A stretch of DNA of 64,000 nucleotides. Origin: a virus. Its lineage: Duplodnaviria > Caudoviricetes. A program made the position numbers and the translations under genes. The notes under the pieces are model-generated. The model worked only from the letters and a program-made list of their open reading frames with translations, searched no databases and was not told the origin of the DNA. How positions within the stretch are numbered: the stretch's first letter is position 1; each line of letters starts with the position of its first letter. Shown here piece after piece: positions 3,858 to 32,300 of this stretch. The stretch lies in the IMG/VR virus record IMGVR_UViG_3300047160_036266, positions 96,001-160,000 of that record, one strand, 5' to 3'.

Positions 3858-3952
3858 TGCCCAGGGCGGGACTCGAACCCGCACGGGAGTTACCTCCCAC
3901 GGGATTTTAAGCCGACTTAAATCCCGTGTGTCTACCATTCCACCACCTGGGC
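3858..3952 (-). tRNA. tRNA-Leu(TAA), class II, with a 10-nt insertion in the anticodon arm
   Basis: GCCCAGG/CCTGGGC acceptor, A73, D-loop TGG, long variable arm, GGTTCGAGTCC; anticodon arm is 27 nt (CGGGATTTAAGTCGGCTTAAAATCCCG) instead of 17. Confidence 0.85.
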
Positions 3953-4663
3953 TTAGACCTCCCACTCGGCGTCGATGCTGCGGTAAACCCGACCCTTCTT
4001 CACTTTGGGCTGGTCCAGGTCAAAACCCATGTGTTGCTCGATCACGCTTTTCACAGTGGCGGCATCCTCCATCCGTGGAATGGTGGACAGGGTATGGAGG
4101 GATGCCATCCAGAAGTCCCATTCCTTCTTGGTCCCGGCCTTGGAGGGTTCCAAGAAGCCGGACTGGCTGTAATCAGGATATTGAATGCCACCGGGGCCAT
4201 GCTGCATAAAGCGGCGAACCTGGAAATCACGCCCGGTTTTATAGTGGGTCACGTCGCCAAGGGGTTTTTGAATGTGGCCGGACTGGCGCAGGAAGTTCAC
4301 CTGTCCGGCGATGGCGGTAATAATGATGGTGTGCAAGGTCTTGCCCATTGAAAAAACGAGCGGCCCCTTGTCTTGGTTGCGGCGGTCGATGACGTTGTAA
4401 TATATCCGCTCGACCGGCTTGATCTGCTTGGCTTCCTGCTCCCGCTGCTGCCGCCAGAGGGCTGTGAAGAGGGAACAATAGTCGCATTGACCAATCCACT
4501 TGCCATCCTTGAGGGTCATGTGGCAGAAGTGGGTGCCGTTCGCCAGGCGGTGGGTACGGCAGCCGTGGAACAGCTTGCAACCCTGTTTCGGCGGCAGGAT
4601 GCGCAAGTCGAAAGGTTCGATGCCGTTGGGCAGTTGACAGAAGATGTTGTTGAGGTTGCCCAT
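3953..4663 (-). CDS. Single-stranded DNA-binding protein, T4 gp32-like
   Basis: LRILPP, His/Cys cluster, YYNVIDR...GPLVFSMGK pattern typical of gp32-like SSBs. Confidence 0.6.
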   Translation of the reverse strand: MGNLNNIFCQLPNGIEPFDLRILPPKQGCKLFHGCRTHRLANGTHFCHMTLKDGKWIGQCDYCSLFTALWRQQREQEAKQIKPVERIYYNVIDRRNQDKGPLVFSMGKTLHTIIITAIAGQVNFLRQSGHIQKPLGDVTHYKTGRDFQVRRFMQHGPGGIQYPDYSQSGFLEPSKAGTKKEWDFWMASLHTLSTIPRMEDAATVKSVIEQHMGFDLDQPKVKKGRVYRSIDAEWEV

Positions 4664-4813
4664 GAGGGCCTATCCTACCCCGTTTTTTCTAGCAGGTAAA
4701 GGTTGAATACTTCAGGATTTGGCAGTACAATCAGAGTGGAGAGGTTGCGCCTTCCACGGAACAAAGGTACAGTAGCCGACCCTCTATTTCCTTCCTGCCG
4801 GCTATATACCAGC

Positions 4814-5638
4814 ATGGACTTCACCGAATTTCTGCTTGAGGCCAAGTTTGCCAAGATCATGAACGCCCTCCGGGGTGACGTGCCGCACGTCAACCAAATG
4901 GGCATCATGACCGCCCAGAATCCCTTGGGCGTAGAGGCCCCGGCCCAGCAGAACAACGCCGCCAACCGGGAGCTTCTGAAGGAGCTTCGTCGCGCCAACT
5001 TCCGGGGCTACCCGGTGAATCCCCGCTGGATAATGGGTAAGTTTGGAAATATCGAGGACAGCTACTTCATCCCGCATATCGACCGGAATACCCTCATCAC
5101 CTTGGGTGCCCGCTTCGGCCAGCGGTCGGTGATCTGGGGCCAGAAGATGCAGGACGAAGATGGCACCTACATTCGCTTCGAGTATATCGACACCCCGGCA
5201 GAGACATTGCCTCTGGACCCGTCCACCTACCAGACATCGCAAACGAGGGACGTGGTTCTGGCCGGCAAAGAGGCGGCTGAGCGCAGCGATTTGTTCTCGG
5301 CCAAACCCTTTCCCCGCAGCGGCATCGACAAGCGCACCGGCAGGCCGGCGACGGTTCGGAAGTTCGTCATTCCCTTCTTTGATCCCACCTACGAGAAGGC
5401 GAAATTCGCCCCTGACAAGGCCAGTGTCATGAAGCCGGTCGAGGATTCCGTGTCCGCCGAACCCTCGTTCTTATCTTCCGAATTGCCGGACACGCCCGAA
5501 GTCCGGCGGCTGGTCGAGGAGATTCGCAACCGGGAGGGCAGCTTGTATGCCCAGGGTAAGGTGCAACGCTGGTATTGGGAGAGTCGGGGGCTGCTGGAAG
5601 TGTCCCTTCAGAAGCTTCGTGAAGTTCTTAAAGGTTAA
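4814..5638 (+). CDS. DUF3293-like protein with N-terminal capsid-targeting-like motif
   Basis: Start MDFTEFLLEA; GIMTAQNP...N..ANREL...RFGQRSVIW resembles DUF3293; TATATA 5 nt upstream of ATG. Confidence 0.55.
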   Translation: MDFTEFLLEAKFAKIMNALRGDVPHVNQMGIMTAQNPLGVEAPAQQNNAANRELLKELRRANFRGYPVNPRWIMGKFGNIEDSYFIPHIDRNTLITLGARFGQRSVIWGQKMQDEDGTYIRFEYIDTPAETLPLDPSTYQTSQTRDVVLAGKEAAERSDLFSAKPFPRSGIDKRTGRPATVRKFVIPFFDPTYEKAKFAPDKASVMKPVEDSVSAEPSFLSSELPDTPEVRRLVEEIRNREGSLYAQGKVQRWYWESRGLLEVSLQKLREVLKG

Positions 5639-6366
5639 TTGTTGGATGGGTCGAAGGTTTCCTCATCCTCGTCTTCATCCAGGCCCAGGTCTTCCCAGGG
5701 CACCGTTTCCAGTTCCCCGCTCTTGATCTTCTCGGTTGTCTCCTTCATCTCTTCGAGGAAGGCGGCGTTGTCTGCCGGCCCGCCCATGAAGGAAATATCG
5801 TCGTAGATTGCATCCAGCACGTCCAACAAGGTGAAGTCCCGTTCCCCCATGAAGATGAGCTTGGCCTTGCCGTCGCGCATCTTGGGGTCATAGATGCTGA
5901 CTTCCGTATTGAGCTTGACGGGCAGGTTGGCAAGTTCCCACATGGGGGAGTAGGAGACGCTGTAGCAGGTGAAGCCCTGTTCGTTGGGCTTGCCAATGCC
6001 GTGGAAGCCCGCTGACAGGTCGATGCTGTTCTTCTTCTTGTAGTTGTGGGTGCTGGCGTGCCAGTAGATTTCCAGGTGGTCCAGCGGTTCGGGGTCCGGC
6101 TCCATTTTGAGGACCATTTTGCGGGCGTCCTCGTGGAACTCGTCAATGTGCCGGCACCACGCATATTGCGAGATGAAGTCCTTCAGGTCAGGGAGCTTGG
6201 CCACCCCCTCGAAGATGTCCCGCAGCGTCACTCCTTCCTCGATCTCGCAGGAGCAGCGCAGCAGGGTCCAGATGTACCGAGGCCGGCGCTTTACATATTC
6301 ACGCGCGTCTCCGTCCCATTTGTAGGACCAAATGCCGTCCTTCTCGATTTTGGCATGTTCCGACAT
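5635..6366 (-). CDS. Hypothetical protein
   Basis: 243-aa ORF with acidic C-terminus. Confidence 0.6.
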   Translation of the reverse strand: MSEHAKIEKDGIWSYKWDGDAREYVKRRPRYIWTLLRCSCEIEEGVTLRDIFEGVAKLPDLKDFISQYAWCRHIDEFHEDARKMVLKMEPDPEPLDHLEIYWHASTHNYKKKNSIDLSAGFHGIGKPNEQGFTCYSVSYSPMWELANLPVKLNTEVSIYDPKMRDGKAKLIFMGERDFTLLDVLDAIYDDISFMGGPADNAAFLEEMKETTEKIKSGELETVPWEDLGLDEDEDEETFDPSNN

Positions 6367-6381
6367 AGCAGTTCCTTAATA

Positions 6382-6628
6382 GGTAGCACACTCCCGTAAG
6401 CAGGATTCTGTTCTATGCCATCATTTATCTCACAGGCCGTGGTGGGCCTGCGGCCTTGCGGCTGCACCTACCAGACCCGTTGCCCTGCTCACCGGCTGGG
6501 TCTATTTGGTTTGCACCCTCCGGGGTGGTAGCGATACTGAGCCTTGCGGCTGTTCTCTCCCCCGTTAAGCAGTGGTGTCCTGACTTTCCTCTATCCCTTG
6601 CGGGACAGCGATGGCTCGGAGCGCTACC
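6382..6628 (-). ncRNA. rnpB: Minimal RNase P RNA
   Basis: Minus strand: P1 GGTAGCGCTCC/GGAGTGTGCTACC, P2 GCCATC/GATGGC, P3 GTCCC-GCAA-GGGAT, CR-I GAGGAAAGTCAGGACACC, GGGTGCAAACC, GAGCAGGGC, GAGATAAATGATGGC, CR-V AGAACAGAATCCTGCTTA; P4 covaries (AAGTCAGGA/TCCTGCTT); 247 nt. Confidence 0.85.
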
Positions 6629-6671
6629 TAGTTAGTGATTGTACCAGGGATTTGGCCGGTTGTAAAGCCCC

Positions 6672-9185
6672 TCAATCTTCTGAGCCGCCGTCCGTTCCTG
6701 GGTCAGCGTCCTCCGATCCGTCGTCGCTCCAGGTCACATCCGGCGAGTTCCAATCCCAATCATCTGCGTTTTGAAGCCGCAATCGACAGACATTTCCAAA
6801 AAGGAGACGCCGGCCAGAGTCGTCATGGGTAATAACCGACTGGCTAGGATTAGCCGTTACCACATAACGGAAACCTGTGGTTTGTTCCCAACAACCTTGC
6901 CTCACGACCTCCTGAATAATGTAGCGACCGGGCCGAACGTAGAATAGCAGATCGCCGTTCCTGTCCGTTTCGCCCACTATCCTGTCATTTGCCAGAATGC
7001 GCCATCCCGCCAGACCTTCCTCGTCAGGGTCCAGTTCCCCATTGCCATTACGGTCGTTGAACTTGTGAACCAGAATGGCCACCTTGATAGGTCCAGGCTC
7101 GGCACTATCATCGCCGCCGCCTCCTCCACTTAAATTTCTTGGCGGGCCAGTTATCACTGGCTCAAAGGGATTGTAGGGCGAAACCACAAAAGGAGGATTC
7201 TGATTGGGCAGATAAGGCAGGAGGGATATAATCGCGTAGAGTATCTTTATCTTTAGCAATGCTCGCAGAATGTCTCCCTCAAGTGCCAAGTCAGGGTTTT
7301 CACCTGGGGGTTTTTCGCCACCGTCTCCTGGGGGCTTACCACCGCCACCGCCACCGCCACCGCCACCGCCACCGCCACCACCACCACCGCCACCATTTTG
7401 GGGAATTACCACGGTTTGTTCGGTGATTCCTCCCTGGTCGTTAGTAGCGTGGTTATTGCTGTCGCCGTTATAGTGAACCGTCCATGTATATTTGCCGGGC
7501 ACCGATCCCAGGGTGAAGCCGATTGGGGTAGCATAGGTTCCATTGCCGTTGACCGTTACCGTCTCAGTGTCCACCGTATTACCGCCCGGCCCCGTCAGGG
7601 TGAAGGTGATTGTGCCAGTGGGCGAAAAACCGCCGGCCAGGATCGCTTTGTCAGTCAGGATGGCCGAGGCCGGCAGGGTCACTGTGTTGGGGCTGGCGTT
7701 CGTAACCAGCGTGGGGCTGTTTGGTGTAATCACTGCTCGCTCCTGTGCAGGATTACTGTCGCTGAGGCTGTTGTTGTTGCCGTCGCCGCTGTAGGTGGCG
7801 ACCCAGAGGTAGGTGCCAGCGCCCGCCCCTGTGAAGCCGATGGGCGTTGTATAAGTGCCATTCCCATTGACCGTGACCATCTCCGTGTCCACAGGCAGGA
7901 TTCCACCGTTGAGGAATAGTCTGAAGGTGATAGTCCCGGTGGGGTCGAATCCCCCGGCCAGGATTGCCTTGTCAGTTAGCACTGGAGCCGGCAAAGGGGC
8001 TGTGGCGGGGCTGGCGGCTGTGAACAAGTTCGGACTGGCCGGTGTAATGACAACCCGCTCCTGGGTGGGATTGTTGTCGATGGTTCCATTATTATTGGGA
8101 TCGCCGCTATAGGTAGCGACCCATTGATAAGTGCCGGCTCCTGTGGCTGCATTCAAGGTGAAACCGACAGGTGTGGTGTAGGTGCCGTTGCCAAGTACCG
8201 CAACCATTTCCGTGTCCACGGGCAGGATGCCGCCGTTGAAGAACAATCTAAAGGTGATGCTGCCGACCTCGAAGAAGCCGCCGCTCAGCGTAGCCGAGTC
8301 CTTCAGCACCGTGGGTGTGTTGCCCAGGGTGACGGCGCTTGGATTGGCGCTGGTGGTCAGTGTCGGATTCGCCGGACTTACGACGGTTTGTTCTGCGGTC
8401 CCTCCTTGGTCGTTGGCGGGACTGTTTGCGCTATCGCCGCTGTAGTGAACTGACCATGTATAGGTGCCGGCCACTGATCCGGTGATGGATATATTGGTGC
8501 TGGCGCTGTAGGTGCCGTTACCGTTGACCGTTTCGGTCTGGGTGGACGAGAAACCGCCTGGGCCGTTCAACGTGAAGACGATGGTGCCTCCAGGGGAGTT
8601 GCCGCCGGACAGCACTGCCGTGTCGCTTAGTGATGCTATGCTCATCCCCAGCGTGATGGCGTTGCTGGCGGTGGTTATGAGCGTGGGTTGGACCACCGCC
8701 AGAACCTTGAAATTGTCCGTCTTGCTGTTGTTATTTTCAAAACCGAAATTGCTGTGAGGATCACCCGGATTATAGTCCGCCACCGGCGTCAGCCACACCT
8801 TGTAATTCCCCCCTGGGTTGGGCGTGGTGCTAAAGGGGAAAAGACCCACCGTTATGCCGCCGAAGACCGAGACGCCGATAGCGTGCGTCGTGCCGAGGTA
8901 AGCGTCGAAAACGCCCGCTGCTGAAACATGGGCCTCACGCTCGGTGATCGGGTCGGTGGAAAGTAGAGTGGAGCCGTTCGGGTCGGTGACTTGAAAAAAA
9001 TAGTCGCCGCTTGGGGTGTTGCCCTGGTTGCTATTGCCGACCCGGATATAAACGTCCGACTTGTTGGCGAAGTTGTTGCCGTTGATCGTTGACCCATCCA
9101 CGGTGGTGGCAAACACATTACCAGCAAAAGAGGGGCAACATCTATCTTCTAACTGCTCAAGCCTTGGGCGGAAGGTATTTCGCAT
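6672..9185 (-). CDS. Secreted surface/adhesin-like protein: planctomycete leader, four Ig-like repeats, poly-Gly linker, SdrD-B-like domain
   Basis: N-terminal RPRLEQLEDRCCPS; repeats PTL.T.AS...L.D.A.L.GG..P.GTI.F.L...GNGTY...Y.W...YSGD.NN; C-terminal KFNDRNGNGELDPDEEGLAGW. Confidence 0.75.
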   Translation of the reverse strand: MRNTFRPRLEQLEDRCCPSFAGNVFATTVDGSTINGNNFANKSDVYIRVGNSNQGNTPSGDYFFQVTDPNGSTLLSTDPITEREAHVSAAGVFDAYLGTTHAIGVSVFGGITVGLFPFSTTPNPGGNYKVWLTPVADYNPGDPHSNFGFENNNSKTDNFKVLAVVQPTLITTASNAITLGMSIASLSDTAVLSGGNSPGGTIVFTLNGPGGFSSTQTETVNGNGTYSASTNISITGSVAGTYTWSVHYSGDSANSPANDQGGTAEQTVVSPANPTLTTSANPSAVTLGNTPTVLKDSATLSGGFFEVGSITFRLFFNGGILPVDTEMVAVLGNGTYTTPVGFTLNAATGAGTYQWVATYSGDPNNNGTIDNNPTQERVVITPASPNLFTAASPATAPLPAPVLTDKAILAGGFDPTGTITFRLFLNGGILPVDTEMVTVNGNGTYTTPIGFTGAGAGTYLWVATYSGDGNNNSLSDSNPAQERAVITPNSPTLVTNASPNTVTLPASAILTDKAILAGGFSPTGTITFTLTGPGGNTVDTETVTVNGNGTYATPIGFTLGSVPGKYTWTVHYNGDSNNHATNDQGGITEQTVVIPQNGGGGGGGGGGGGGGGGGGGKPPGDGGEKPPGENPDLALEGDILRALLKIKILYAIISLLPYLPNQNPPFVVSPYNPFEPVITGPPRNLSGGGGGDDSAEPGPIKVAILVHKFNDRNGNGELDPDEEGLAGWRILANDRIVGETDRNGDLLFYVRPGRYIIQEVVRQGCWEQTTGFRYVVTANPSQSVITHDDSGRRLLFGNVCRLRLQNADDWDWNSPDVTWSDDGSEDADPGTDGGSED
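7338..7394 (-). repeat. GGT/GGC codon repeat encoding about 19 consecutive Gly
   Basis: (acc/gcc)n run on the plus strand. Confidence 0.9.
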
Positions 9186-9221
9186 ACCATATAAATTGTC
9201 CTCGTGTTGAAATTCTTTTAG

Positions 9222-9305
9222 TGCCCCCGCCAGGACTCGAACCCGGACTCCCGTTACAGGAACTTGGGCCTAAGCCAAGCGCGTCTACCCTTTCGCCACG
9301 GGGGC
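9222..9305 (-). tRNA. tRNA-Leu(TAG)
   Basis: Cloverleaf; CTTGG-CTTAGGC-CCAAG arm, long variable arm, GGTTCGAGTCC, A73. Confidence 0.92.
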
Positions 9306-10364
9306 TTACGGTCGCCTCGCTGAAGCGACCCAGATGACCGAGTGTTTGGCGCGACTTGCCGCCGTGTACGCCCAGCGTTTATGGTCCCAGCGATCACACA
9401 CCTGCTCGTAGACCAGGATATTGTCCCACTCATCGCCCTGGCTCTTATGGCAGGTCACGCAGTAGGCGTAATCGAACGGATTGGGCGGCTCCCAGCCACC
9501 CTTTAATTCGGTCTTCTCCTTGCCGAACTGCTCCCGGTCGTACCGGATGTAGTAATAGATATGCCCGTCCGACTCGAAATCGAACATATCGGGCTTGTGC
9601 AGGGTCTTCACCACGCCCTGCATCCCGTTGAAGATGCCCAGGCGCTTGTTATTTTTCAAGCACATGACCCGCTCGCCCCGCTCGATGAGGGCCTTCTTGC
9701 CCAGGTGGTGGCGGATGCGCTCGTTGGTGTTGACCCGGAACTTATTGTAGGCGCAGATAATCTGGTCGGTGTTGGTCAGGTGTTCGTCCTGAATGTCACT
9801 TACCGTGCCGATCTGGACCTTCTGGCGTTCCGTGAAGGTCCAGGGCGAGCGGCCTTTGCGAAGGTGTTCGGCAAAGTGGGCGATCTCTCCAGCGTTGCGG
9901 TGGACCATCTCCAGTTTGTACATTGGGTCCATCATCAGGTTGAAGTCGCTGCCGACCGGCTCAAGCTGGCCGTGGTCGCCAACGTAGATAATGGGCAGCC
10001 CGAAGGACTGGAGATCGGTGTCCAGGTCTTTGCTAACCATCGAGCCTTCGTCAACGATGAAACCCTTCTTGGTGAAGTCATCCGGGTGGATAAGGTCGAA
10101 GTAGATGTGCCCGTCGTACTCGTAGGGCCGGTAGATGGTGCTATGGATCGTCTGCGCCCCGTGAATGCCCTTGCGCCGCAGGACGTTGGCTGCCTTGCCG
10201 GTGAAGGCACAAACGGCCCAATCAGAAAGCTTCTGGACCAGAACCGAGATGAGGGTCGTCTTGCCGGTGCCGGCGTAACCGCCTACCGTTTGGATTGCCT
10301 CGTTCTCCTTGTTCTGGAGAAGCTTCCTGATGATCGTCTTCTGTTCTTCGCTCAGGTCCGGCAT
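9306..10364 (-). CDS. SF1B helicase (Dda / RecD-like)
   Basis: GGYAGTGKTT, AFTGKAA, IVDEGSM, VGDHGQL, YAYCVTCHKSQG, YTAASRAK. Confidence 0.88.
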   Translation of the reverse strand: MPDLSEEQKTIIRKLLQNKENEAIQTVGGYAGTGKTTLISVLVQKLSDWAVCAFTGKAANVLRRKGIHGAQTIHSTIYRPYEYDGHIYFDLIHPDDFTKKGFIVDEGSMVSKDLDTDLQSFGLPIIYVGDHGQLEPVGSDFNLMMDPMYKLEMVHRNAGEIAHFAEHLRKGRSPWTFTERQKVQIGTVSDIQDEHLTNTDQIICAYNKFRVNTNERIRHHLGKKALIERGERVMCLKNNKRLGIFNGMQGVVKTLHKPDMFDFESDGHIYYYIRYDREQFGKEKTELKGGWEPPNPFDYAYCVTCHKSQGDEWDNILVYEQVCDRWDHKRWAYTAASRAKHSVIWVASARRP

Positions 10365-10553
10365 GTTTTTCTTTCTCTCGAAACTTCCAGCATTTCTTGC
10401 AGTAATCGTACTGCGGCCAGTTCGGTTCCCCCAGGCCCGCCCAATAGAAGGTGTCCCAGGCGTGGCCAAAGGTAAGGAAACAAACCACCCGCCGCCACAG
10501 CGGCGGGTGGGGAACGAACAGGGGAGGCCAACAATCCCTGGGCCAAAATTCCA

Positions 10554-10949: not shown

Positions 10950-10963
10950 GACTAACCTCCGTG

Positions 10964-12800: not shown

Positions 12801-13361
12801 TCAACCCTCCCGACGAATACTCTCCCATTGAATATACTGCGGCGGAACCCGATCCGTCAACCAAACGCCGTTCTCCGACTGGAAGAACTTGTAGCCATCT
12901 CGGTGCATGTCTCCCGACCGGACCACCAGGATGATCGGCTTGCCCCGCCGGGAACCGACCTTGATGGCGGTGTCGGTATCGGGTGACAGGTGGACGTGGT
13001 GGCGATCCATCCGCAGCAAACCCTTGGTCTTAATTTCGGCCAGGAAACGATTTACCGTCCCATGATATAGTAGGGCCGGCGGCTCCTTCTCTTCAAGCTG
13101 GAGGTCAACGGGCGTTGAATGGCCCTGGTTGGCTCGGATGAGGGTCTGGGTTGAGTCCAGCGAAAAGCGCTTCTTGTCGTTGAGTTTGACGCACTCCTTG
13201 ATTTCTTCCAGGGTCACAGGGAAGTGCTTCTGGCGGGCACCTTCGATGACTGCGGCGATTGAAACCCACCCGCCGGGCATGAGGGTGAGGCCAAGTTCCT
13301 CCGGCTCGTGGCGAAGGTACTTGGCAAGGAATTTGCTAACACGGATGAGTTGAGGAGTCAT
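12801..13361 (-). CDS. kptA: RNA 2'-phosphotransferase (KptA/Tpt1)
   Basis: SKFLAKYLRHEP, NDKKRF, IRANQGHS, LYHGT, RHHVHLS, VWLTDRVPP. Confidence 0.93.
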   Translation of the reverse strand: MTPQLIRVSKFLAKYLRHEPEELGLTLMPGGWVSIAAVIEGARQKHFPVTLEEIKECVKLNDKKRFSLDSTQTLIRANQGHSTPVDLQLEEKEPPALLYHGTVNRFLAEIKTKGLLRMDRHHVHLSPDTDTAIKVGSRRGKPIILVVRSGDMHRDGYKFFQSENGVWLTDRVPPQYIQWESIRREG

Positions 13362-16866: not shown

Positions 16867-18150
16867 TTATACCGGCTTCCTGTCGGGCTGTAAAGCGATT
16901 CCGGGCGCGAAGCAGCGCAGCATGGGTAGCAGGGCTTCGACCGTCTGGGCGGAAGGTTTCTGCCCCTTATTCTTGTTGTAAAACTCCATGAGGGTCGAGA
17001 CAACCTTGTTGACCTTCCAACTACGCATGTAGTGATGGAGATTGGCGTGCAGGTCGGTGAGGTCGATGTCGTCTTGTCCCGGTTCGGCCAGCCAGCGGCG
17101 CAGTCGGCCCAGGAACCGGCGGATACCCGTAATGGCCTTATCATCCCAATCGCCGCCGTCCTGGTATGGCCCCAGGAACATGAGGTAGAGGCGCAGTTCA
17201 TCCGGGTCGTAGGCGTCCGGGTTGACGGCGTTGCCCTTGCTCTTCCCCATCTTGGCCCCGCCCGCCGTAATCATACCCTGGTGGATCACCTGTTTGAACG
17301 GTTCCTCCTCTTGCACGATCCCCTGGTCGTAGAGGAACATATTGATGAAGCGGGCGTAAATCAGGTGCATACAGGCGTGTTCCGGCCCGCCTACATACAG
17401 GTCCACTTGCTGATATTTCTCCGGGTGCAGGAACGTGTCCGAATCGTTTTCAAGATACCGGAGGAAATAAAAGCTGGAATCCACGAAGGTGTCCAGCGTG
17501 TCGGTTTCGCCCTCGACGGGGATCGGACAGCCCCAGCGGCGCTGGCGGGAAACGCACCAGTCGTGCAGGTTCTCCAGCCAGGCCCGCTGCTGGTTGAGGG
17601 TGCCGATGGGGTAGTCGATCTTGTCCAGGTTGGCGATCAGGCGGTCCTTGTAAGCCGTGGTGCGGAAGAACCACTGGTTGAGCGACCGCTGTTCAATCTT
17701 GGCCTGGCAGCGCTCGCAAAAGCCGCCGCCACACTGCTCTTTGGCCAGTACGGTGTCGCAGGACGGGCAGTAGTTGACGGGACCGAAGGCTTTGTAGGCC
17801 AGGCCGTTCTCGCGCAGCAGGGTAAAGAGCCATTGCGTCCATTTGATGTAGGATGGGTCGCACGTCACCAGTTTTTCCTGGTACACCGTGTTCATGTGTC
17901 GCATCTGGCCCCGGAAGCGTTCGATGTTGGCCCAGGTAACGGTGGCCGGGTCGCCGCCGATGGAACGGGCGTAGTTCTCGGCGGGCAGGCCGAAAGCGTC
18001 GTAGCCAAAGGGCTGGAAGACCTCGATGCCCAGGTAGCGCAGCCACCGGCAGTACGAGTCCACGATGGCGTAGTTGTAGTAGTGCCCCAGGTGCAGGCCG
18101 GCACCGGAGGGATACGGGAACATGACGCAGCAGTAGAATGGCTTGCTCAT
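16867..18150 (-). CDS. leuS: Miniature leucyl-tRNA synthetase, no CP1 editing domain, no C-terminal domain
   Basis: MFPYPSGAGLHLGH, GYDAFGLPAEN, WTQWLF, QWFF, DWCVSRQRRWGCPIP, DTLDTFVDSSFY, YVGGPEHACMHLIYARF, KMGKSKGN; 427 aa. Confidence 0.92.
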   Translation of the reverse strand: MSKPFYCCVMFPYPSGAGLHLGHYYNYAIVDSYCRWLRYLGIEVFQPFGYDAFGLPAENYARSIGGDPATVTWANIERFRGQMRHMNTVYQEKLVTCDPSYIKWTQWLFTLLRENGLAYKAFGPVNYCPSCDTVLAKEQCGGGFCERCQAKIEQRSLNQWFFRTTAYKDRLIANLDKIDYPIGTLNQQRAWLENLHDWCVSRQRRWGCPIPVEGETDTLDTFVDSSFYFLRYLENDSDTFLHPEKYQQVDLYVGGPEHACMHLIYARFINMFLYDQGIVQEEEPFKQVIHQGMITAGGAKMGKSKGNAVNPDAYDPDELRLYLMFLGPYQDGGDWDDKAITGIRRFLGRLRRWLAEPGQDDIDLTDLHANLHHYMRSWKVNKVVSTLMEFYNKNKGQKPSAQTVEALLPMLRCFAPGIALQPDRKPV

Positions 18151-23590: not shown

Positions 23591-23754
23591 TGGCTCCTCC
23601 AGGCCAGGTAAAGGTTGACCGCCAGCCATATTAACAGGCCCAGGACGAAGGAGCCAAACAGGAGGTTCCCTGTCTTGATGTACCCTTTATTATGGAGCCG
23701 GGCGGTGGCATAACCAACGCCCAGCCCCAGGATCAGGAAAATGGTGCCGGTCAT
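23587..23754 (-). CDS. Small two-TM membrane protein
   Basis: 55-aa ORF MTGTIFLILGLGVG...; ATGA overlaps both neighbours. Confidence 0.5.
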   Translation of the reverse strand: MTGTIFLILGLGVGYATARLHNKGYIKTGNLLFGSFVLGLLIWLAVNLYLAWRSQ

Positions 23755-24537: not shown

Positions 24538-25213
24538 CGCAGCACTCCTTGGAGAGTTTGCCAGAGCCGCAAAGGCATTGCTCGTCTGGTTTTGCGTCGT
24601 TCCAGGCGTCCTCGTCCCAATCCGCCACGTCGATCTGGTGCCGTTCGGTCGGCCCGATCCACAGGTGGACGCCTTTCTTGCCGTCGTTGACGTGCATCCA
24701 CATTGTACACGCATCCATCCGCTCCATGTGGAGAATGCACTTGCCCTGGAATTTGAAAAACAGTTCATCGAAGATGCCGTCGTCGCCGGCCCAGCCCTCG
24801 CAGATGGTCCACGGGCCGCAGAGGTAATCGTGGTCGCCGTCCTTCTCCAACTTCGCTTTGCGGGCCTGCATGATCTCGGCGTAGGTGAACTTGGCGTCTA
24901 CCATCGCCTGTTCTTCTTGGGTCCATTCCTCTTCGATGTCCCAAACGACGCCGGAGGGAGTGACATCGAGGGGGCGGAAGTGAATGACAAGGCGGCGCAG
25001 GGTTCCCGGCTCGTAGAGCGCCATCCAGATAACGTGGTCATCCAGGCGTTCCAGGTGGATGAGGCATTCGTCGTTCTTGCACAGGACCACTTCATCCAGG
25101 TCTTCGTCGTCCTGCGGCTCAAAGCGCAGTTCAATCTCCCCGATCCACTCCTGGCGGTAGCGGTGGGTGCGGCCTCCGACTTGGTATTCGTGGTAGTGGT
25201 AGTTGGTATTCAC
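24503..25213 (-). CDS. Hypothetical protein with C-terminal SEC-C motif
   Basis: EQCLCGSGKLSKECC; start uncertain. Confidence 0.5.
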   Translation of the reverse strand: MNTNYHYHEYQVGGRTHRYRQEWIGEIELRFEPQDDEDLDEVVLCKNDECLIHLERLDDHVIWMALYEPGTLRRLVIHFRPLDVTPSGVVWDIEEEWTQEEQAMVDAKFTYAEIMQARKAKLEKDGDHDYLCGPWTICEGWAGDDGIFDELFFKFQGKCILHMERMDACTMWMHVNDGKKGVHLWIGPTERHQIDVADWDEDAWNDAKPDEQCLCGSGKLSKECCDDQGTTDLASQ

Positions 25214-25484: not shown

Positions 25485-25753
25485 TAGTAGACTCGCACAC
25501 GCTTGTAGCGGTAACAAAGCTTCTCAATGTAACCCGTCACGACGCCGTAGCAGTCGTAAACCGGAACTGTCCTGTAGTAAGGCACGCGAATCCGCTTGTA
25601 CCGAACCCGGTAGGCGCTGTAGCCATATCCGTGGACATGACGATAACTATGCCGGTGGTGGCGGTGGTGCTTGTAGTGAGCCGCTTCTGCCGTGCCTGTG
25701 CCGCCCACAAGGGAAGCCAGACCTACAACGGCGGAAAGCAGTAACGCTTTCAT
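25484..25753 (-). CDS. Small secreted His/Tyr/Arg-rich protein
   Basis: Signal peptide ending AEA; HYKHHRHHRH. Confidence 0.6.
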   Translation of the reverse strand: MKALLLSAVVGLASLVGGTGTAEAAHYKHHRHHRHSYRHVHGYGYSAYRVRYKRIRVPYYRTVPVYDCYGVVTGYIEKLCYRYKRVRVY

Positions 25754-25823
25754 GCGTTCCTCCTAACTCTAGGGTATGAACCTACTTATATAGGAGGAAT
25801 GACAACTAATTTAGTGAACATTC

Positions 25824-26003
25824 CTAACGTGGTGCAAATAATAGGATTACGAACCCCAGGATCAGGAATACCAGTGCGATCCAGCCGGTGGTTTGTTGAG
25901 CTTCGGGCGAGTCCCAGCGGCGTCCTGCGTTATTGAGGAACAGCAATAACGCGCCAAAGGCTACGAGAATCCATCCAAGTACGAACACGATGAAAGCCTC
26001 CAT
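25824..26003 (-). CDS. Small two-TM membrane protein
   Basis: MEAFIVFVLGW... Confidence 0.5.
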   Translation of the reverse strand: MEAFIVFVLGWILVAFGALLLFLNNAGRRWDSPEAQQTTGWIALVFLILGFVILLFAPR

Positions 26004-26015
26004 TCTTTTTGGGAG

Positions 26016-26099
26016 TGCCAGGGGAGGGAGTCGAACCCTCACGGGATTTCTCCCACCAGATTTTGAGTCTGGCGTGGCTGCCGATTACACCACCCTGGC
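26016..26099 (-). tRNA. tRNA-Leu(CAA)
   Basis: CCAGA-CTCAAAA-TCTGG, long variable arm, GGTTCGACTCC, A73. Confidence 0.92.
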
Positions 26100-26302
26100 T
26101 AATTGGCCGACATCTTGCCGATGCCGTTACCCTGATGTGCCATTATAAGGACGGCTTCCTCACGAGAGAAACCTTCCGCCATCATAGCGTCGAGGGTTTT
26201 CTTATAGAGGCGGGCAGCGATTTTGAAAATCTCTTCCTGCTTTTCCGCCGCTTCCATCATATATTTGACGGCCTCAAACATCTCGTCTATTTGCTCGATC
26301 AT
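26099..26302 (-). CDS. Small hypothetical protein
   Basis: MIEQIDEMFE..., GGAGG RBS. Confidence 0.5.
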   Translation of the reverse strand: MIEQIDEMFEAVKYMMEAAEKQEEIFKIAARLYKKTLDAMMAEGFSREEAVLIMAHQGNGIGKMSAN

Positions 26303-26316
26303 GGGAACCTCCAAAG

Positions 26317-26400
26317 TGTCCAGGGCGGGAGTCGAACCCGCACGCCCTTTCGGGCACCAGCCCCTCAAGCTGGCGTGGCTACCAGTTACACCACCTGGAC
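26317..26400 (-). tRNA. tRNA-Leu(GAG)
   Basis: CCAGC-TTGAGGG-GCTGG, long variable arm, GGTTCGACTCC. Confidence 0.92.
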
Positions 26401-26612
26401 AGGGGCGGCGGTTGTTACCTCTTGCCAGATCAACATTCTCGGCACGGGGGCCATTGAGAAGGTCATCTAAGCACCAGGGCCACGCTCCGTGTCAAAAGAC
26501 GACTCGGCGTTTACCTGGCTCTGGCAGACGACTTCCCCTTCCGCCGCCCGGTCGTCTACTCGATGGTATCGAAGACGCGCAATAGTCGGGGAAGAGGCCA
26601 AGACAGAGGCAG

Positions 26613-26695
26613 TGCCCAGGGTGGGAGTTGAACCCACACGCCCTTACGGGCACACGGCCCTGAACCGTGCGTGGCTGCCATTACACCACCTGGGC
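26613..26695 (-). tRNA. tRNA-Leu(CAG)
   Basis: CACGG-TTCAGGG-CCGTG, long variable arm, GGTTCAACTCC. Confidence 0.92.
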
Positions 26696-26707
26696 TTTCA
26701 TTTCATT

Positions 26708-28357: not shown

Positions 28358-28407
28358 GTAATATTTATGCGCCTCGCAGAGAAAGTCATGAACCGACTAT
28401 ATATTGC

Positions 28408-29838
28408 ATGGGATACAGGATCACGCCACATACGAATGTCACCAACGACGACGGCACCATCACGATTTCCGAAGAGGGGGTCACTGAGACTATCAGCGTT
28501 AATCTCGCCAAGGATAATACTTGGTCGGCAACCCAAACCGTGGAAACGGACGGCAGCACAGTTCCGGTAGTCGTTAGAGCCGCCACCAACCAAACCGCCG
28601 ATCTCCAGCAGTGGCAGGACGCCAGCGGTAATGTCGTCAGCCGGGTCGGGCCGGACGGTCAGTTGGAGATTTCTGTGACGAGCGGGGTTATTTCCATCAC
28701 CAACGATGACGGCACTTTAACGATCACGCCCACCACGGGCGATGCCGTAGCTAAGCTCAATCTTGGCAATGCCAATACATGGTCTGCCACGCAAACTCTG
28801 GCACCAGCTACAGATACCGTACCCCTGGTCATCAAGGCCAGCGCTACTCAGACGGCTGCATTGCAGCAATGGCAGGACACCACCGGAAAGACGCTAAGTA
28901 GCGTCAATGCAGCCGGCCAGTTTGTCCTGGCGACCAGCACGGGTACTCCCAGCGGTTCGGCCACCGATGGCACCTGTGTGGTGGACCCAAGCAATTTGAA
29001 ACTGTGGATTTACCTACAGGGCGACTGGCGGGAATCAACCTTGTTTGGGGAGCCATCTTTGTGCCAGGGCCGGCTCACTCTAACCTCCGGCACTCCCGTA
29101 ACCACCCAGGATGTAATTGGGGCCTCTACCATATATTTCACACCCTTCGGCGGCAAGCGCATCAGTCTGTATGATGGCAAGGGCTGGGTATCCCATCAGT
29201 TTACCGAGGCCAGTCTCGCTTTGGGCGGGCTGACATTAGGCATCCCCTATGATGTCTATGGCTACTGGAACAATGGCCTGGTTCTCGGTTTGGACCCCTG
29301 GAGCGGACCCAATGCCCGCACGGGCAACCTGAACCTTCAGGACGGCATCTATGTGATGGCTGTTGATCCGACGTACCGCTTTCTGGCTACTATTTACCCC
29401 ACCAGTGCGACCACCACGGAGGACTCGGATGCCAAGCGATTCGTGAACAATTACTACAACTACCGGCTGCGGCGTCTGCGCATTGCCGATACCGGGACGC
29501 ACACTTACAACACTACTGTGTGGCGACCCTATAACAATAACGCTGTCAACAGAGTCGAGTTTGTGATTTCGATGGTGGAAGACGCCATTCACTGTGCGTT
29601 ATTTGCCCAGGTAAATGCCAACGGTGCTGCCGGCATCAATGTCGATGCGACGGATGGTTCGGGAGTCTTGCAGCAGTGCATTGCCAATGCAAATAATAGT
29701 AGTGTCTGGGCGGGTTCCTCCCCCACTTTTTTGCCGCCGTCAGAAGGCTATCACTTCCTTCAGGCGATGGAATATTCCGGTGGCGGTCAGACATCCAATT
29801 TCACCGGCATGGTCCTAAACGGCATGATCCCAGGTTAA
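28408..29838 (+). CDS. Probable virion tail/fibre-associated structural protein
   Basis: Two internal repeats NTWSATQT...VP.V..A...QTA.LQQWQD..G; Thr/Gly-rich; TATATA 4 nt upstream. Confidence 0.55.
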   Translation: MGYRITPHTNVTNDDGTITISEEGVTETISVNLAKDNTWSATQTVETDGSTVPVVVRAATNQTADLQQWQDASGNVVSRVGPDGQLEISVTSGVISITNDDGTLTITPTTGDAVAKLNLGNANTWSATQTLAPATDTVPLVIKASATQTAALQQWQDTTGKTLSSVNAAGQFVLATSTGTPSGSATDGTCVVDPSNLKLWIYLQGDWRESTLFGEPSLCQGRLTLTSGTPVTTQDVIGASTIYFTPFGGKRISLYDGKGWVSHQFTEASLALGGLTLGIPYDVYGYWNNGLVLGLDPWSGPNARTGNLNLQDGIYVMAVDPTYRFLATIYPTSATTTEDSDAKRFVNNYYNYRLRRLRIADTGTHTYNTTVWRPYNNNAVNRVEFVISMVEDAIHCALFAQVNANGAAGINVDATDGSGVLQQCIANANNSSVWAGSSPTFLPPSEGYHFLQAMEYSGGGQTSNFTGMVLNGMIPG

Positions 29839-30305
29839 ACTGGCATCGGTGATGGTGATTTGATGGCCGGTTTGGGCTTCGGTGGTTTGGGCGCACCCAT
29901 GTCATCACTTCGCACCGGGGCGCGATCCTTGGCCTGAATGTAGAAGACGTAAGTTACACGGTCGTCCGCCCCGCCGCTTTGCCTTTCCGTCTGCCGGAAC
30001 ACGACCATGAGCTTGGTCTGGGCTGATTCGTATTGCATGAATTCCTTGAGGCGGGCGATAGTGGAAGCGATGAACTCCTTGCTGCCCGTGATGCGGATGC
30101 CGTCTTGTTGGTAGGTGGAACCTTCGTGTTCGTAGGGGATAGGCTGCATGGCGAGGGGCATATTTGGTTGGAGGCCCTGCCAGTAGGACATTACCTGTTC
30201 CTTGGTGGCCTTCCACTTCTTGCCGGGCTGCATGGTGGCGCTGGTGGTCGTCGGGGGCGTCGTTTGCAGCGGGCGCTCATACCGCCATTCGTTGAAGTTC
30301 TTCAT
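29835..30305 (-). CDS. Hypothetical protein with capsid-targeting-like N-terminus
   Basis: MKNFNEWRYE. Confidence 0.6.
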   Translation of the reverse strand: MKNFNEWRYERPLQTTPPTTTSATMQPGKKWKATKEQVMSYWQGLQPNMPLAMQPIPYEHEGSTYQQDGIRITGSKEFIASTIARLKEFMQYESAQTKLMVVFRQTERQSGGADDRVTYVFYIQAKDRAPVRSDDMGAPKPPKPKPAIKSPSPMPV

Positions 30306-30460
30306 CAGTATTATCTATGACCGGCATCCGCTTTTTGTGCTTGTGCTTGCGGCCATTTTGACACCACGGGCAGGAGCCGTGGTTGCGGCAAGAGCCGTCT
30401 ACGGCCTTGGCCGAACGGGGCTTATAAGCCTTGCGCCAGTCCTTGCGATGGGGATAGACC

Positions 30461-30649
30461 TTATCGAAGCTCATCGGAACCTCTCCTGGCCTTTCTTATT
30501 TTCATCAGTTCCAGCATCTTCGGGACGTTCAAGGTGCGGATGTAGTTATCAAGCCCTCTCCTCTGGATGATGCGACCTTTTTCCAGCTTCTCCCAATACT
30601 CACGGGAGACGCCGAAGACTTCTTCAGGGTCGAGCAGTTCTTCTTCCAT
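30461..30649 (-). CDS. Small hypothetical protein
   Basis: MEEELLDPEE... Confidence 0.45.
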   Translation of the reverse strand: MEEELLDPEEVFGVSREYWEKLEKGRIIQRRGLDNYIRTLNVPKMLELMKIRKARRGSDELR

Positions 30650-30651
30650 AG

Positions 30652-30725
30652 TAGCACGGGTGGGAATTGCACCCACGGCATCTCAGTTTTTGAAACTAAG
30701 TGGTCTACTGTCTGCCTACCGTGCC
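30652..30725 (-). tRNA. Non-canonical tRNA-like gene, anticodon CAA (Leu)
   Basis: GGCACGG/CCGTGCT, A73; D-arm GGCAGACAGTAGACC without GG; 6-bp anticodon stem CTTAGT/ACTGAG; 5-nt variable loop; T-loop TGCAATT; 74 nt. Confidence 0.8.
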
Positions 30726-30729
30726 ATAT

Positions 30730-30840
30730 CCCGTGACAGGAGCATTGCGGTTTTGCGGCTGCGCCGCCTTTACCCCGCTCGCATTAGCCCCATGTCACCT
30801 GCATCCCGATGCGAGCCGTTATGACAGGTCGAGTCACGGG
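30730..30840. ncRNA. Candidate small structured RNA inside the tRNA-like array
   Basis: Closing stem CCCGTGAC/GTCACGGG and internal GCTCGCAT/ATGCGAGC. Confidence 0.35.
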
Positions 30841-30843
30841 AAG

Positions 30844-30917
30844 TGCCCAGGGCCGGAGTTGCACCGGCGGCATCACTGGTTCTAAGCCAATGTGGTCTGC
30901 TGTCTGCCTACCTGGGC
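30844..30917 (-). tRNA. Non-canonical tRNA-like gene, anticodon TAG (Leu)
   Basis: GCCCAGG/CCTGGGC, A73; CATTGG-CTTAGAA-CCAGTG; T-loop TGCAACT; 74 nt. Confidence 0.8.
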
Positions 30918-30920
30918 AAG

Positions 30921-30994
30921 TGGCACGGGTGGGAATTGCACCCACGGCATCGCTGGCTCTCGACCAACGTGGTCTACTGTCTGCCTACCGTGCC
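30921..30994 (-). tRNA. Non-canonical tRNA-like gene, anticodon GAG (Leu)
   Basis: GGCACGG/CCGTGCC, A73; CGTTGG-TCGAGAG-CCAGCG; T-loop TGCAATT; 74 nt. Confidence 0.8.
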
Positions 30995-30998
30995 ATAG

Positions 30999-31072
30999 TG
31001 CCCAGGGTGGGAGTTGCACCCACGGCATCAGAGGTTCTGGACCTCTGTGGTCTGCTGTCTGCCTACCTGGGC
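30999..31072 (-). tRNA. Non-canonical tRNA-like gene, anticodon CAG (Leu)
   Basis: GCCCAGG/CCTGGGC, A73; CAGAGG-TCCAGAA-CCTCTG; T-loop TGCAACT; 74 nt. Confidence 0.8.
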
Positions 31073-31075
31073 CTG

Positions 31076-31423
31076 TTATTGAAGTCGATCTCGGATACTT
31101 TCAAACCACTGGATGAACTTTTCTTTGTTTGGATGTTGCCCTTGCGACACAACCTCCACCGCACGGTCCAGGGCGTAGTGCATATTGCCGATTAGGTCGT
31201 TGAGCCATCGACCCTTGGGGATTGCCGATCTGAGCGCCTTGGCGTCCGCCGGCAAGTGCTGGGCATAAGCCTGCATATTGTGCAGGAGGTTTCCGCCCAT
31301 GTCCCAGCGCCCTTTTAACATTTCCTGCGCTAACCGACCCAGCTTCGTGGTGTTGACCAGGGCATTGGTGACTATCTCTTGGGCTACGTCAGCGGCCTCC
31401 AGCCATTGTCGGAAGGTACTCAT
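31076..31423 (-). CDS. Hypothetical protein with capsid-targeting-like N-terminus
   Basis: MSTFRQWLEAA; TACATA 5 nt upstream. Confidence 0.6.
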   Translation of the reverse strand: MSTFRQWLEAADVAQEIVTNALVNTTKLGRLAQEMLKGRWDMGGNLLHNMQAYAQHLPADAKALRSAIPKGRWLNDLIGNMHYALDRAVEVVSQGQHPNKEKFIQWFESIRDRLQ

Positions 31424-31443
31424 GGAGTTATGTAGGCTTCCCG

Positions 31444-31743
31444 CTACCAAAACGGGTCGCTGTCGGGCTTGCACTCCTCAAAGCCGCCTTCCTTGTCAAA
31501 CATCCGTTCCCACAAGGTCGCGTCCCGATATAGTTCGATGGTCCGGGCTGAACTGCAACAGTCGTGGTAATCATAAGGGTCTTGCTCGTGCAATTCGAGG
31601 TAGGTTGCCTTGTCCTCGAAGAGAATATGCGTGAGCGTCACTCGGTCCTGGCCGAAGCGGCTGACCTTCTGGCCCCGGAAGGCCACGATATTCATGCCGA
31701 TCAGGTCGGTCCACTTCGGAATGCTGGACTTTTTCTTTGCCAT
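31444..31743 (-). CDS. Hypothetical protein
   Basis: MAKKKSS..., GGAGG RBS. Confidence 0.55.
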   Translation of the reverse strand: MAKKKSSIPKWTDLIGMNIVAFRGQKVSRFGQDRVTLTHILFEDKATYLELHEQDPYDYHDCCSSARTIELYRDATLWERMFDKEGGFEECKPDSDPFW

Positions 31744-31755
31744 AATTCCCTCCAG

Positions 31756-31829
31756 TGGCACGGGCCGGACCTGCCCCGGCAGCATCACTGATTTTAAGTC
31801 GGTGTGGTCTTCTTCTTGCCTACCGTGCC
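31756..31829 (-). tRNA. Non-canonical tRNA-like gene, anticodon TAA (Leu)
   Basis: GGCACGG/CCGTGCC, A73; D-arm GGCAAGAAGAAGACC; CACCGA-CTTAAAA-TCAGTG; T-loop GGCAGGT; 74 nt. Confidence 0.75.
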
Positions 31830-31833
31830 AAAA

Positions 31834-31920
31834 TGAGCAGTGGAGGAGTTGAACCACTCGGCATCCGCCCCACTTCTTTAATGCCAACAGTTTTACAGAC
31901 TGCCGTGGGGAACACCGCTC
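31834..31920 (-). tRNA. Atypical tRNA-Tyr(GTA)-like gene lacking a conventional D-arm
   Basis: 8-bp acceptor GAGCGGTG/CACTGCTC; CGGCAGT-CTGTAAA-ACTGTTG; D region reduced to TTCCCCA; irregular T-stem with TTCAACT loop. Confidence 0.55.
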
Positions 31921-32048
31921 AAATTCTTTCGATCCGAATTGACATGATTGCCCAAATGAGTTATTGTCTCCTAACTGTAGTGCGGCTGGACGGGACCGCA
32001 CTACGAGGGCGGGTTGTGCGAGGGGGCACACCCGCCCATTTTATTTAG

Positions 32049-32123
32049 CGCCTGGGAGCGGTATCGCACCGCTGACCTCCGGTGTTTCAAGCCGGCGCTC
32101 TGTCTTGTCTGAGCTACCCAGGC
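32049..32123 (-). tRNA. Non-canonical tRNA-like gene, anticodon GAA (Phe)
   Basis: GCCTGGG/CCCAGGC, G73; D-loop AGACAAGACA (no GG); CCGGC-TTGAAAC-ACCGG; T-loop TGCGATA. Confidence 0.75.
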
Positions 32124-32127
32124 GTAA

Positions 32128-32224
32128 CCGGAGATATATTCGTTAAGGACTGCCGATTTGAACGGCCAATTCCCCTTGTGGGGGAACACATCACCTAGAA
32201 GTATTCCTTAACTGCACCATCCGG
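32128..32224 (-). ncRNA. Y-RNA-like element 1
   Basis: CCGGA/TCCGG ends, GGTGCAG-TTAAGGA-ATACTTC motif, T-arm GCCG-TTCAAAT-CGGC, TTAAGGA/TCCTTAA stem. Confidence 0.5.
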
Positions 32225-32227
32225 TAG

Positions 32228-32300
32228 TGCCTGGGGTCGGAGTCGCACCGACGACCTCTTGCTCTTCAGGCAAGCGCTCTACTGGTTGAGCTACCCAGGC
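32228..32300 (-). tRNA. Non-canonical tRNA-like gene, anticodon GAA (Phe)
   Basis: GCCTGGG/CCCAGGC, A73; D-loop AACCAGTA (no GG); CTTGC-CTGAAGA-GCAAG; T-loop TGCGACT; 73 nt. Confidence 0.8.

Follow-up and report, generated by a model that had tools for sequence, protein, structure and literature searches.

The DNA analysed here is a window of 64,000 nucleotides (nt), bases 96001-160000 of the 343-kb IMG/VR virus record IMGVR_UViG_3300047160_036266; "the window" below always means the whole of this stretch. It carries a phage-encoded RNase P RNA of about 250 nt (6379..6631), a leucyl-tRNA synthetase (LeuRS) of 427 amino acids (aa; 16867..18150) and seven tRNA genes with an altered D/T-loop elbow, located between positions 30652 and 32300. 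Every feature of the window discussed below is on the minus strand. These parts are real and conserved and, to judge by the literature searched, unpublished.

The 343-kb record has a CheckV completeness of 69%. The mini synthetase gene at 2311..3699 has a counterpart with an identical protein product on a contig of 669,797 bp, from which we infer a phage genome of about 670 kb; our genome searches of this phage (G000) cover 343 kb of it. Its DNA is present in many soil metagenomes, the look-up of sequencing runs returning soil DNA metagenomes only. Neither megablast with the first 12 kb of the window nor blastn with the ribozyme found a match among 50,697 deposited phage records. A single-protein query of IMG/VR gave no matches either, and an alignment query was needed to recover relatives.

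A minimal RNase P RNA

The RNase P RNA was recognised by its match to the Rfam model RF00010 and by covariation. The model aligns to 6379-6627 over its full length (1-367) within 249 nt (65.9 bits, E 5e-18), with 8 nt standing in for the approximately 105 model positions of P8-P14. The score lies below the Rfam gathering cut-off of 100 bits because the specificity domain (S-domain) is deleted. Helices P1-P5 and P15-P18, the P6 pseudoknot and conserved regions (CR) I, IV and V are kept, and what is left of the S-domain is a stub of about 45 nt made of P7 and one GCAA-capped hairpin. The type A specificity domain, P7-P14 with the elbow-binding T-loop module of CR-II and CR-III, is not found in the window RNA. 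The RF00010 alignment thus bears out the first-pass annotation of this DNA, in which the RNase P RNA was said to have nearly lost its specificity domain.

In P4, AAG-U-CAGGA, with its bulged U, pairs with UCCUGCUU, and three positions covary (A-U, U-A, G-C). P15-P17 are present with the GGU motif of L15 that binds the 3' end, CUGGUAGGU coming after P16. The P6 pseudoknot is formed by CUGCU and AGCAG and is 90% paired across the phage copies. Homologues were gathered by means of the neighbouring synthetase gene and a conserved motif. When the structure drawn by hand was tested on an alignment of 11 phage sequences, 86.8% of the cells were paired and 33 pairs had changed on both sides, values reached by none of 500 shuffles. 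Pairing in the 11 copies is 100% in P2, P4 and P5 and 97% in P3, and covariation is strong in P2-P5 and P7.

The RNA has a sigma-70-like promoter of its own (TTTACA-17-TGgTACAAT, 6638..6666), which ends 7 nt upstream of the 5' end of the RNA and puts +1 right at this end, at about 6631. Homologues of about 158 nt have TTGACA-17-TACAAT at the equivalent position. Directly 3' of the RNA lies the ribosome-binding site of the next gene, which starts 13 nt past the ribozyme and encodes a 243-aa protein of no known family (5635-6366). Its gene also lies close to that of the ribozyme, and downstream of one for a RecD-like helicase, in G004, G010, G011, G015, G017 and G001; this may be plain synteny, or the protein may be a candidate partner of the RNA. 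On the other side, an open reading frame (ORF) of 837 aa adjoins the ribozyme (6672-9185). It was considered as a synthetase and rejected, being an Ig-like Big_3_5 protein.

The phage RNA has the same catalytic-domain architecture (P1-P5, P15-P18, P6) as the bacterial type A RNase P RNA (RF00010; E. coli M1 RNA, T. maritima). The two also share CR-I GAGGAAAGUC, J18/2 AGAUAAAUG, J2/4 ACAGAAUCC, the bulged U of P4 and the GGU of L15. In contrast to type A, the phage RNA is phage-encoded, about 120 nt shorter, devoid of P8-P14 and of CR-II/CR-III, below the Rfam cut-off and without a cognate rnpA. The type T RNase P RNA of archaea likewise combines an intact catalytic domain with an S-domain reduced to a hairpin-like stub (PMC13462272). 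However, type T works with Pop5/Rpp30/Rpp29 and its stub is modelled with one T-loop stacking on C56, whereas the phage RNA is of bacterial type, its stub has no recognisable T-loop motif and the S-domain is missing altogether from its relatives of about 158 nt. Since the modelled type T stub may still stack on C56 (PMC13462272), the 45-nt stub of the window RNA cannot be called elbow-blind, a description that fits the relatives of about 158 nt alone.

A family search for rnpA found none in the 343 kb of this phage, nor in G004, G005, G008, G013 and G015. The RNA would fold as a type A catalytic domain. With no rnpA detected in the phage, it would borrow the RnpA protein of the host. Such an enzyme would cleave the leaders and the 3-4-nt spacers of the packed phage tRNA genes. 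It is predicted to recognise the acceptor stem, N-1 and the 3' end while leaving the elbow distance unmeasured, so that canonical and altered tRNAs would be processed alike.

Another reading is that of a decoy. Here the mini RNase P RNA would be no processing enzyme: it would titrate host RnpA and so shut down host tRNA maturation, as might be suspected from the retention of the RnpA-binding part (P2-P3, J18/2, J2/4) and the failure to find a phage rnpA. We hold this to be extremely improbable, because the nucleotides of the catalytic core, the bulged U of P4, the GGU of L15 and P6 are conserved with covariation, and because the gene lies in or beside tRNA arrays in many phages.

The ribozyme in related phages

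A profile made from the phage copies detects the mini RNase P RNA in 13 of 13 related records, including the complete genomes G004, G005 and G008. A genome search based on Rfam had missed it in G005 and G008; both were false negatives recovered by the profile. The profile also validated 45 of the 52 IMG/VR loci that bear the RNase P motif. The phage RNAs are between about 158 and about 290 nt long, and in the smallest P5 is capped by a loop of 6 nt from which P6 is formed. When a single CR-IV/V motif was applied to both groups, the spacing between CR-I and CR-IV has a median of 145 nt at 35 viral loci (81-254) versus 265 nt at 67 bacterial loci (158-334). The sole bacterial spacing below 225 nt, one of 158 nt, comes from a 546-kb contig (L212 = CALFYV010000090.1) labelled as a Bacteriovoracaceae metagenome-assembled genome, which is probably a mis-binned huge phage.

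Some of these genes are embedded among tRNA genes. That of G013 (24585-24776) lies between two of them with 1-nt spacers, and that of G019 directly abuts a tRNA. In G005 there is, besides the RNase P RNA at 83047-83302, a second, partial copy 330 nt downstream (82556-82717, minus strand) that is without P3 and CR-I and abuts a tRNA gene.

Our literature search found no paper on a phage RNase P RNA. The reference survey of huge phages covers tRNAs and synthetases without a word on RNase P (PMC7162821).

A minimal LeuRS linked to tRNA-Leu genes

The mini-LeuRS was identified by TIGR00396 and by alignment with the LeuRS of T. thermophilus. The TIGR00396 match falls into four pieces (model positions 13-221, 411-428, 484-569 and 603-752 of 843) and totals 380.5 bits, below the curated equivalog cut-off of 548. 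The blocks aligned with the T. thermophilus enzyme cover its residues 36-228, 418-436, 487-579 and 636-700. The CP1 editing domain is therefore missing (model positions 221-411 and T. thermophilus residues 229-417 are absent), as are the leucine-specific domain and the C-terminal domain (CTD), the match stopping at 752/843. No separate C-terminal match to TIGR00396 was found within the 343 kb. The first-pass annotation had described a LeuRS devoid of its CTD, which is correct as far as it goes; the loss of the editing and leucine-specific domains goes beyond it.

The class I Rossmann core is kept with PYPSG..HLGH and KMGKS, which include its HIGH (HLGH) and KMSKS (KMGKS) motifs. MFPYPSG, DAFGLPAEN and EHACMHLIY align to the pocket of the T. 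thermophilus enzyme, with MFPY, D80 and EHxxxH conserved. Because these pocket residues are conserved, the mini-LeuRS is expected to activate leucine. The family exceeds 7700 proteins of about 420 aa with 65-88% identity, many of them on contigs of 300-630 kb, up to 634 kb.

In many huge phages the mini-LeuRS gene is physically linked to clusters of tRNA-Leu genes that mix ordinary type II with unusual type I members. Among the tRNAs within 10 kb of the mini-LeuRS gene at 53 IMG/VR loci, 60 of 220 are tRNA-Leu, versus 19 of 198 genome-wide. Type I tRNA-Leu (74-78 nt) stands beside type II at 10 of the 53 loci. A73 is found in 98 of 104 phage tRNA-Leu, 32 of 34 short and 66 of 70 long.

The bacterial CTD contacts G19:C56, and without it the LeuRS enzymes of E. 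coli and of T. thermophilus no longer aminoacylate (PMC3561953). Ordinary bacterial LeuRS reportedly fails to charge type I tRNA-Leu (PMC6614811). In view of these reports and of the linkage at the loci, a phage LeuRS that reads the acceptor end only could permit a type I Leu set. The mini-LeuRS would then rely on nothing but A73 and the acceptor stem to charge both the type II and the type I set, with no proofreading.

The LeuRS of Mycoplasma mobile (PDB 3ZIU) is likewise a natural enzyme without CP1, but it keeps the CTD. The engineered deletions in the E. coli and T. thermophilus enzymes remove the elbow-binding CTD, as in the phage protein, but leave them inactive (PMC3561953). The phage LeuRS is without CP1, leucine-specific domain and CTD all at once, in a form conserved in thousands of phage sequences. 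Streptomyces coelicolor also has a type I tRNA-Leu, and there one long host LeuRS serves both types by way of its leucine-specific domain (PMC6614811). The phage differs in having a linked LeuRS without that domain, five type I isoacceptors and a rewired elbow.

In G011 (43409-43740) and G018 (87047-87375) a remnant of the mini-LeuRS gene is found, in which residues 8-63 are fused to 368-422. This shows decay of the gene in a lineage that still holds type I Leu tRNAs.

tRNAs with a rewired elbow

tRNAs were called with ARAGORN and Rfam together with inspection of the sequence. Of the seven deviant tRNAs of the window, two are tRNA-Phe(GAA) and five, each 74 nt long, bear Leu anticodons. The short, type I tRNA-Leu genes carry the anticodons CAA (30652-30725), UAG (30844-30917), GAG (30921-30994), CAG (30999-31072) and UAA (31756-31829; found by ARAGORN at the 95% threshold), and spacers of 3-4 nt separate the UAG, GAG and CAG genes. 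Their architecture comprises a 7-bp acceptor stem, A73, a D region of 15 nt (GGCAGACAGCAGACC), a 6-bp anticodon stem and a variable region of 5 nt, the long variable arm of type II being absent in all five. The four within 30652-31072 have the D region GGCAGACAG(C/U)AGACC, the T loop UGCAAYU and A73. The UAA copy is the most deviant: its T loop is GGCAGGU, and its anticodon stem has a C-A mismatch. The first altered tRNA-Phe (32228-32300; Rfam 68.8 bits) has the D loop AACCAGUA, the T loop UGCGACU and A73. The second (32049-32123; 52.5 bits) has the D loop AGACAAGACA, the T loop UGCGAUA, G73 and one mismatch in the anticodon stem. ARAGORN folds all seven into a cloverleaf, two of them only at the 95% threshold, and five of the seven score 31-69 bits with the Rfam tRNA model.

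The canonical combination of G18-G19 with U54-U55-C56 is found in none of the seven. Their D loops (AGACAGCAG, AACCAGUA and AGACAAGACA) have AG instead of GG. The T loops read UGCAAYU or UGCGAYN apart from that of the UAA copy, so that six of seven start U-G-C rather than U-U-C and the seventh G-G-C. The seven altered elbows that had been claimed for this DNA are thus found by ARAGORN and Rfam as well, and the alteration can be stated more narrowly as GG to AG plus U55 to G55, with G19 and C56 kept. The contact G18-Psi55 (pseudouridine 55) is replaced by A18-G55. On the sequences, this is a compensated G18A/U55G swap under a retained outer G19-C56 pair, an elbow that is rewired, not lost. The G19-C56 pair is the usual seat of both the RNase P S-domain and the LeuRS CTD.

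The two changes go together. Among 519 ARAGORN tRNAs with 7-nt T loops, GG is lost in 11 of 12 with G55 and in 29 of 505 with U55; these tRNAs were drawn from related phage DNA and paralogues are not independent, so that the Fisher value of 2e-12 should be taken as no more than a rough guide. The AG/xGC combination is also present in other phages and in tRNAs of other identities, namely Gly, Gln, Phe, Leu and a UCA suppressor. G004, G010, G011, G015, G017 and L326 share the short Leu scaffold, but with GG and TTC. The elbow swap in the short Leu tRNAs is therefore peculiar to the G000 lineage.

Relaxed selection might account for the altered copies: given two Leu sets and three Phe genes, they would be redundant and drifting towards pseudogenes, and the elbow change would have no function. 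The UAA and second Phe copies, with their stem mismatches and aberrant T loops, would suit this idea, as would the C33 of two short copies. Yet the changes at 18 and 55 are correlated (the 11 of 12 above), the swap is common to all seven genes while their stems remain paired, and it has recurred independently in G005, G010, G012/G019 and G013. Drift as the explanation of the elbow is therefore quite unlikely.

The five short Leu anticodons (UAA, CAA, UAG, CAG and GAG) serve all six Leu codons, and the acceptor and T stems of the short CAG tRNA are identical to those of the long CAG tRNA. From these sequences, a short set that covers all Leu codons with a canonical T stem argues for ordinary ribosomal use. 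The seven G18A/U55G tRNAs would thus be a lineage-specific, compensated variant that still decodes on the ribosome.

The main rival explanation of the duplicate set is evasion of host defences. The short or rewired Leu and Phe tRNAs would be a backup not seen by a postulated host tRNA nuclease or modification-dependent defence, with LeuRS, RNase P and repair chemistry of the Tpt1 type keeping up the supply during destruction of the tRNAs of the host. A full duplicate Leu decoding set on a different scaffold would make sense in these terms, as would the recurrence of the compensated swap in unrelated phages and in five identities (Gly, Gln, Phe, Leu and the UCA suppressor) and the presence of Tpt1 in the same island. 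However, the nucleases known to attack anticodons recognise the anticodon loop, and in these tRNAs that loop is ordinary; the long canonical set is kept as well. We therefore rate defence evasion as unlikely, if worth bearing in mind.

Other kinds of elbow variation occur in the relatives. In G008 (clusters at 344-346 kb and 420-459 kb), the D loops of 12 of 51 tRNAs show GCG or the like where GG is expected, and their T loops have the usual TTC. G004 (491736-491826) and G017 (23601-23689) have tRNA-like genes of 89-91 nt, conserved in both, with an 8-nt T loop, UAUCGAAU, and a D loop without GG.

One circuit or separate modules

The first-pass annotation had joined the three parts into one orthogonal, elbow-independent circuit. 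In that proposal the S-domain-poor RNase P and the CTD-less LeuRS are dedicated to elbow-altered tRNAs that host enzymes would handle poorly or reject, and they would feed a Leu and Phe aminoacyl pool that is non-ribosomal or possibly hidden from EF-Tu. The idea has its appeal: all three parts miss or alter elements that meet at the tRNA elbow (PMC3561953), staphylococcal tRNA-Gly set aside for cell-wall synthesis also has a UGC T loop (PMC7826273), and type I tRNA-Leu is not charged by typical bacterial LeuRS (PMC6614811). Nevertheless, it is mostly not supported, and we consider it very unlikely.

The components were expected to occur together in relatives and they do not co-vary. This was judged from five complete or near-complete genomes, all of which have the mini RNase P RNA. 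The mini-LeuRS is present in G000 (69% complete), which has seven G55 tRNAs and five type I tRNA-Leu, and in G008 (100%), where none of 51 tRNAs has G55 and 12 D loops are without GG. It is absent from G004 (100%; G55 in 0 of 56 tRNAs, two type I tRNA-Leu), G005 (100%; 1 of 63) and G013 (80%; 2 of 28). From this comparison it follows that the ribozyme is a general trait, while LeuRS and G55 elbows vary independently. Indeed, most tRNAs of the related phages with mini RNase P are canonical, and the RNA is common in phages with canonical tRNAs throughout; in G004 none of the 56 is of the G55 type.

A hidden Leu pool fares no better. The short tRNAs retain the G19-C56 platform, five of them serve all six Leu codons, and their T stem is that of the canonical isoacceptor, acceptor and T stems of the short and long CAG tRNAs being equal. 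Family searches of the 343 kb for enzymes that might consume such a pool, Aat, CDPS and FemAB, found none. A search for the PheRS-alpha family in the same 343 kb also found none; hence there is no PheRS to make the Phe arm orthogonal.

The non-proteogenic tRNA-Gly of Staphylococcus is the closest parallel in the T loop, since it too has TGC or TGT for TTC (no Psi55) together with a non-canonical D loop (PMC7826273). But the staphylococcal tRNAs have a single anticodon, carry T-stem pairs that weaken EF-Tu binding, and feed FemXAB (PMC7826273). These other hallmarks are absent from the phage tRNAs, which cover all Leu codons, have a canonical T stem and come with no transferase found in the 343 kb.

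What survives of the proposed processing and charging route is that the phage encodes its own RNase P RNA and its own LeuRS, both without the modules that normally touch the elbow, and that mini-LeuRS genes of many huge phages are linked to mixed tRNA-Leu clusters; an obligatory three-part circuit does not survive. A weaker version may be envisaged, in which the A18:G55 type I Leu and Phe tRNAs, the mini-LeuRS and the S-domain-poor RNase P are co-adapted into a decoding channel beyond the reach of host enzymes and defences. We give this little credence. If true, it would amount to a natural orthogonal system of synthetase, tRNA and processing enzyme beside that of the host.

We favour three independent modules: a processing ribozyme, a Leu module (the mini-LeuRS with dual tRNA-Leu sets) and a lineage-specific elbow variant. 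They would belong to a huge-phage "translation island", an assembly of separate and separately inherited modules that lower the dependence of tRNA supply on the host. On balance we think this island reading probable, if by no means secure. Several observations weigh against it. G004, a complete genome, has type I Leu tRNAs yet no phage LeuRS, which is a counter-example to the link between the two. As engineered CTD deletions lose aminoacylation, a natural CTD-less LeuRS may need a partner or may do something else. C33 replaces U33 in two of the five short Leu tRNAs, and the stem mismatches of the UAA and second Phe copies could be decay. The non-independence of paralogues among the 519 tRNAs has been mentioned. 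Finally, absences from 343 of about 670 kb are weak evidence.

Taken singly, the parts are naturally minimal versions of core translation components, and this opens them to direct testing. RNase P RNAs with a vestigial S-domain, and those of about 158 nt that are free of it, offer a test of how much of the ribozyme is required in vivo. Given a LeuRS that is conserved in thousands of phages without a domain essential to the E. coli enzyme, one may ask by what means it recognises tRNA-Leu. In the recurrent G18A/U55G swap, nature itself has experimented with the best-conserved tertiary pair of tRNA. The parts are also candidates for compact or orthogonal translation tools, and they extend the known reach of phage takeover of translation.

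Other tRNAs and translation genes of the window

The long Leu set consists of canonical type II tRNA-Leu genes with the anticodons CAA (26016-26099), GAG (26317-26400) and CAG (26613-26695), and of a canonical long tRNA-Leu(UAG) at 9222..9305. A third tRNA-Phe(GAA), at 32772..32843, has a canonical elbow (D-loop GG, T loop UUCAACU; Rfam 51.5 bits). There are four tRNA-Ser genes in the window, and the remaining Leu, Ser and Phe genes are canonical. An 88-nt Tyr-like element (31834-31921), which may be a tRNA-Tyr, is called by ARAGORN as Asn only at the 85% threshold and has a weak Sec-like Rfam score.

A 95-nt RNA resembling tRNA-Leu, called "tRNA-Leu(aag)", is encoded at 3858..3952, just upstream of a synthetase gene described below. 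Its acceptor, D, T and long variable arms are normal. The anticodon arm instead forms a closed hairpin of 12 bp under a UCGG cap, in which 10 extra nt pair with bases of the anticodon loop. A homologue in G001 (L002, approximately 9753-9850) has the same pairing with a different cap. The extra bases are either a mini-intron near positions 37/38 or the mark of an anticodon-less Leu mimic. In the former case the mature anticodon would be UAA, and the long Leu set would match the short one.

The neighbouring gene (2311..3699), just outside the 3858-32300 region that holds the parts discussed so far, encodes a mini class Ia synthetase of 462 aa without CP1 editing and C-terminal domains. It was considered as the LeuRS of the first-pass annotation and rejected. 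NCBIfam PRK13208 gives 337 bits versus 85 bits for LeuRS, and in alignment with 1GAX the valyl-tRNA synthetase (ValRS) pocket motifs PPP, DTW and HDIIxxW are kept; the protein is thus ValRS-like. This mini-ValRS family occurs on many phage contigs of 500-670 kb. A tRNA-Val gene was not found in the 343 kb.

The island also encodes Tpt1/KptA RNA 2'-phosphotransferase (12801..13361; PF01885, 174.9 bits). The chemistry of this enzyme belongs to tRNA ligation of the yeast and plant type. Its presence would fit splicing or repair of phage tRNAs.

Between the tRNA genes at 32127-32770 the motif GGTGCAGWTRAGGRWTACTTC occurs three times. The copy at 32339-32409 has a weak Rfam match to YrlA (Y RNA-like) and holds a permuted tRNA-like module, in which the T arm and 3' acceptor strand come before the 5' acceptor strand and D arm. 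Further afield, the window codes for gp32-like, RecD-like, SbcCD-like (T4 gp46/47 type) and ribonucleotide reductase proteins. An ORF at 34161-34838 resembles the C-terminal domain of L7/L12. Another, at 35747-36583, adjoins the tRNA-Ser genes and weakly resembles a class II synthetase core, for which no family assignment was reached. It is followed at 36593-37291 by a DUF5915 protein.

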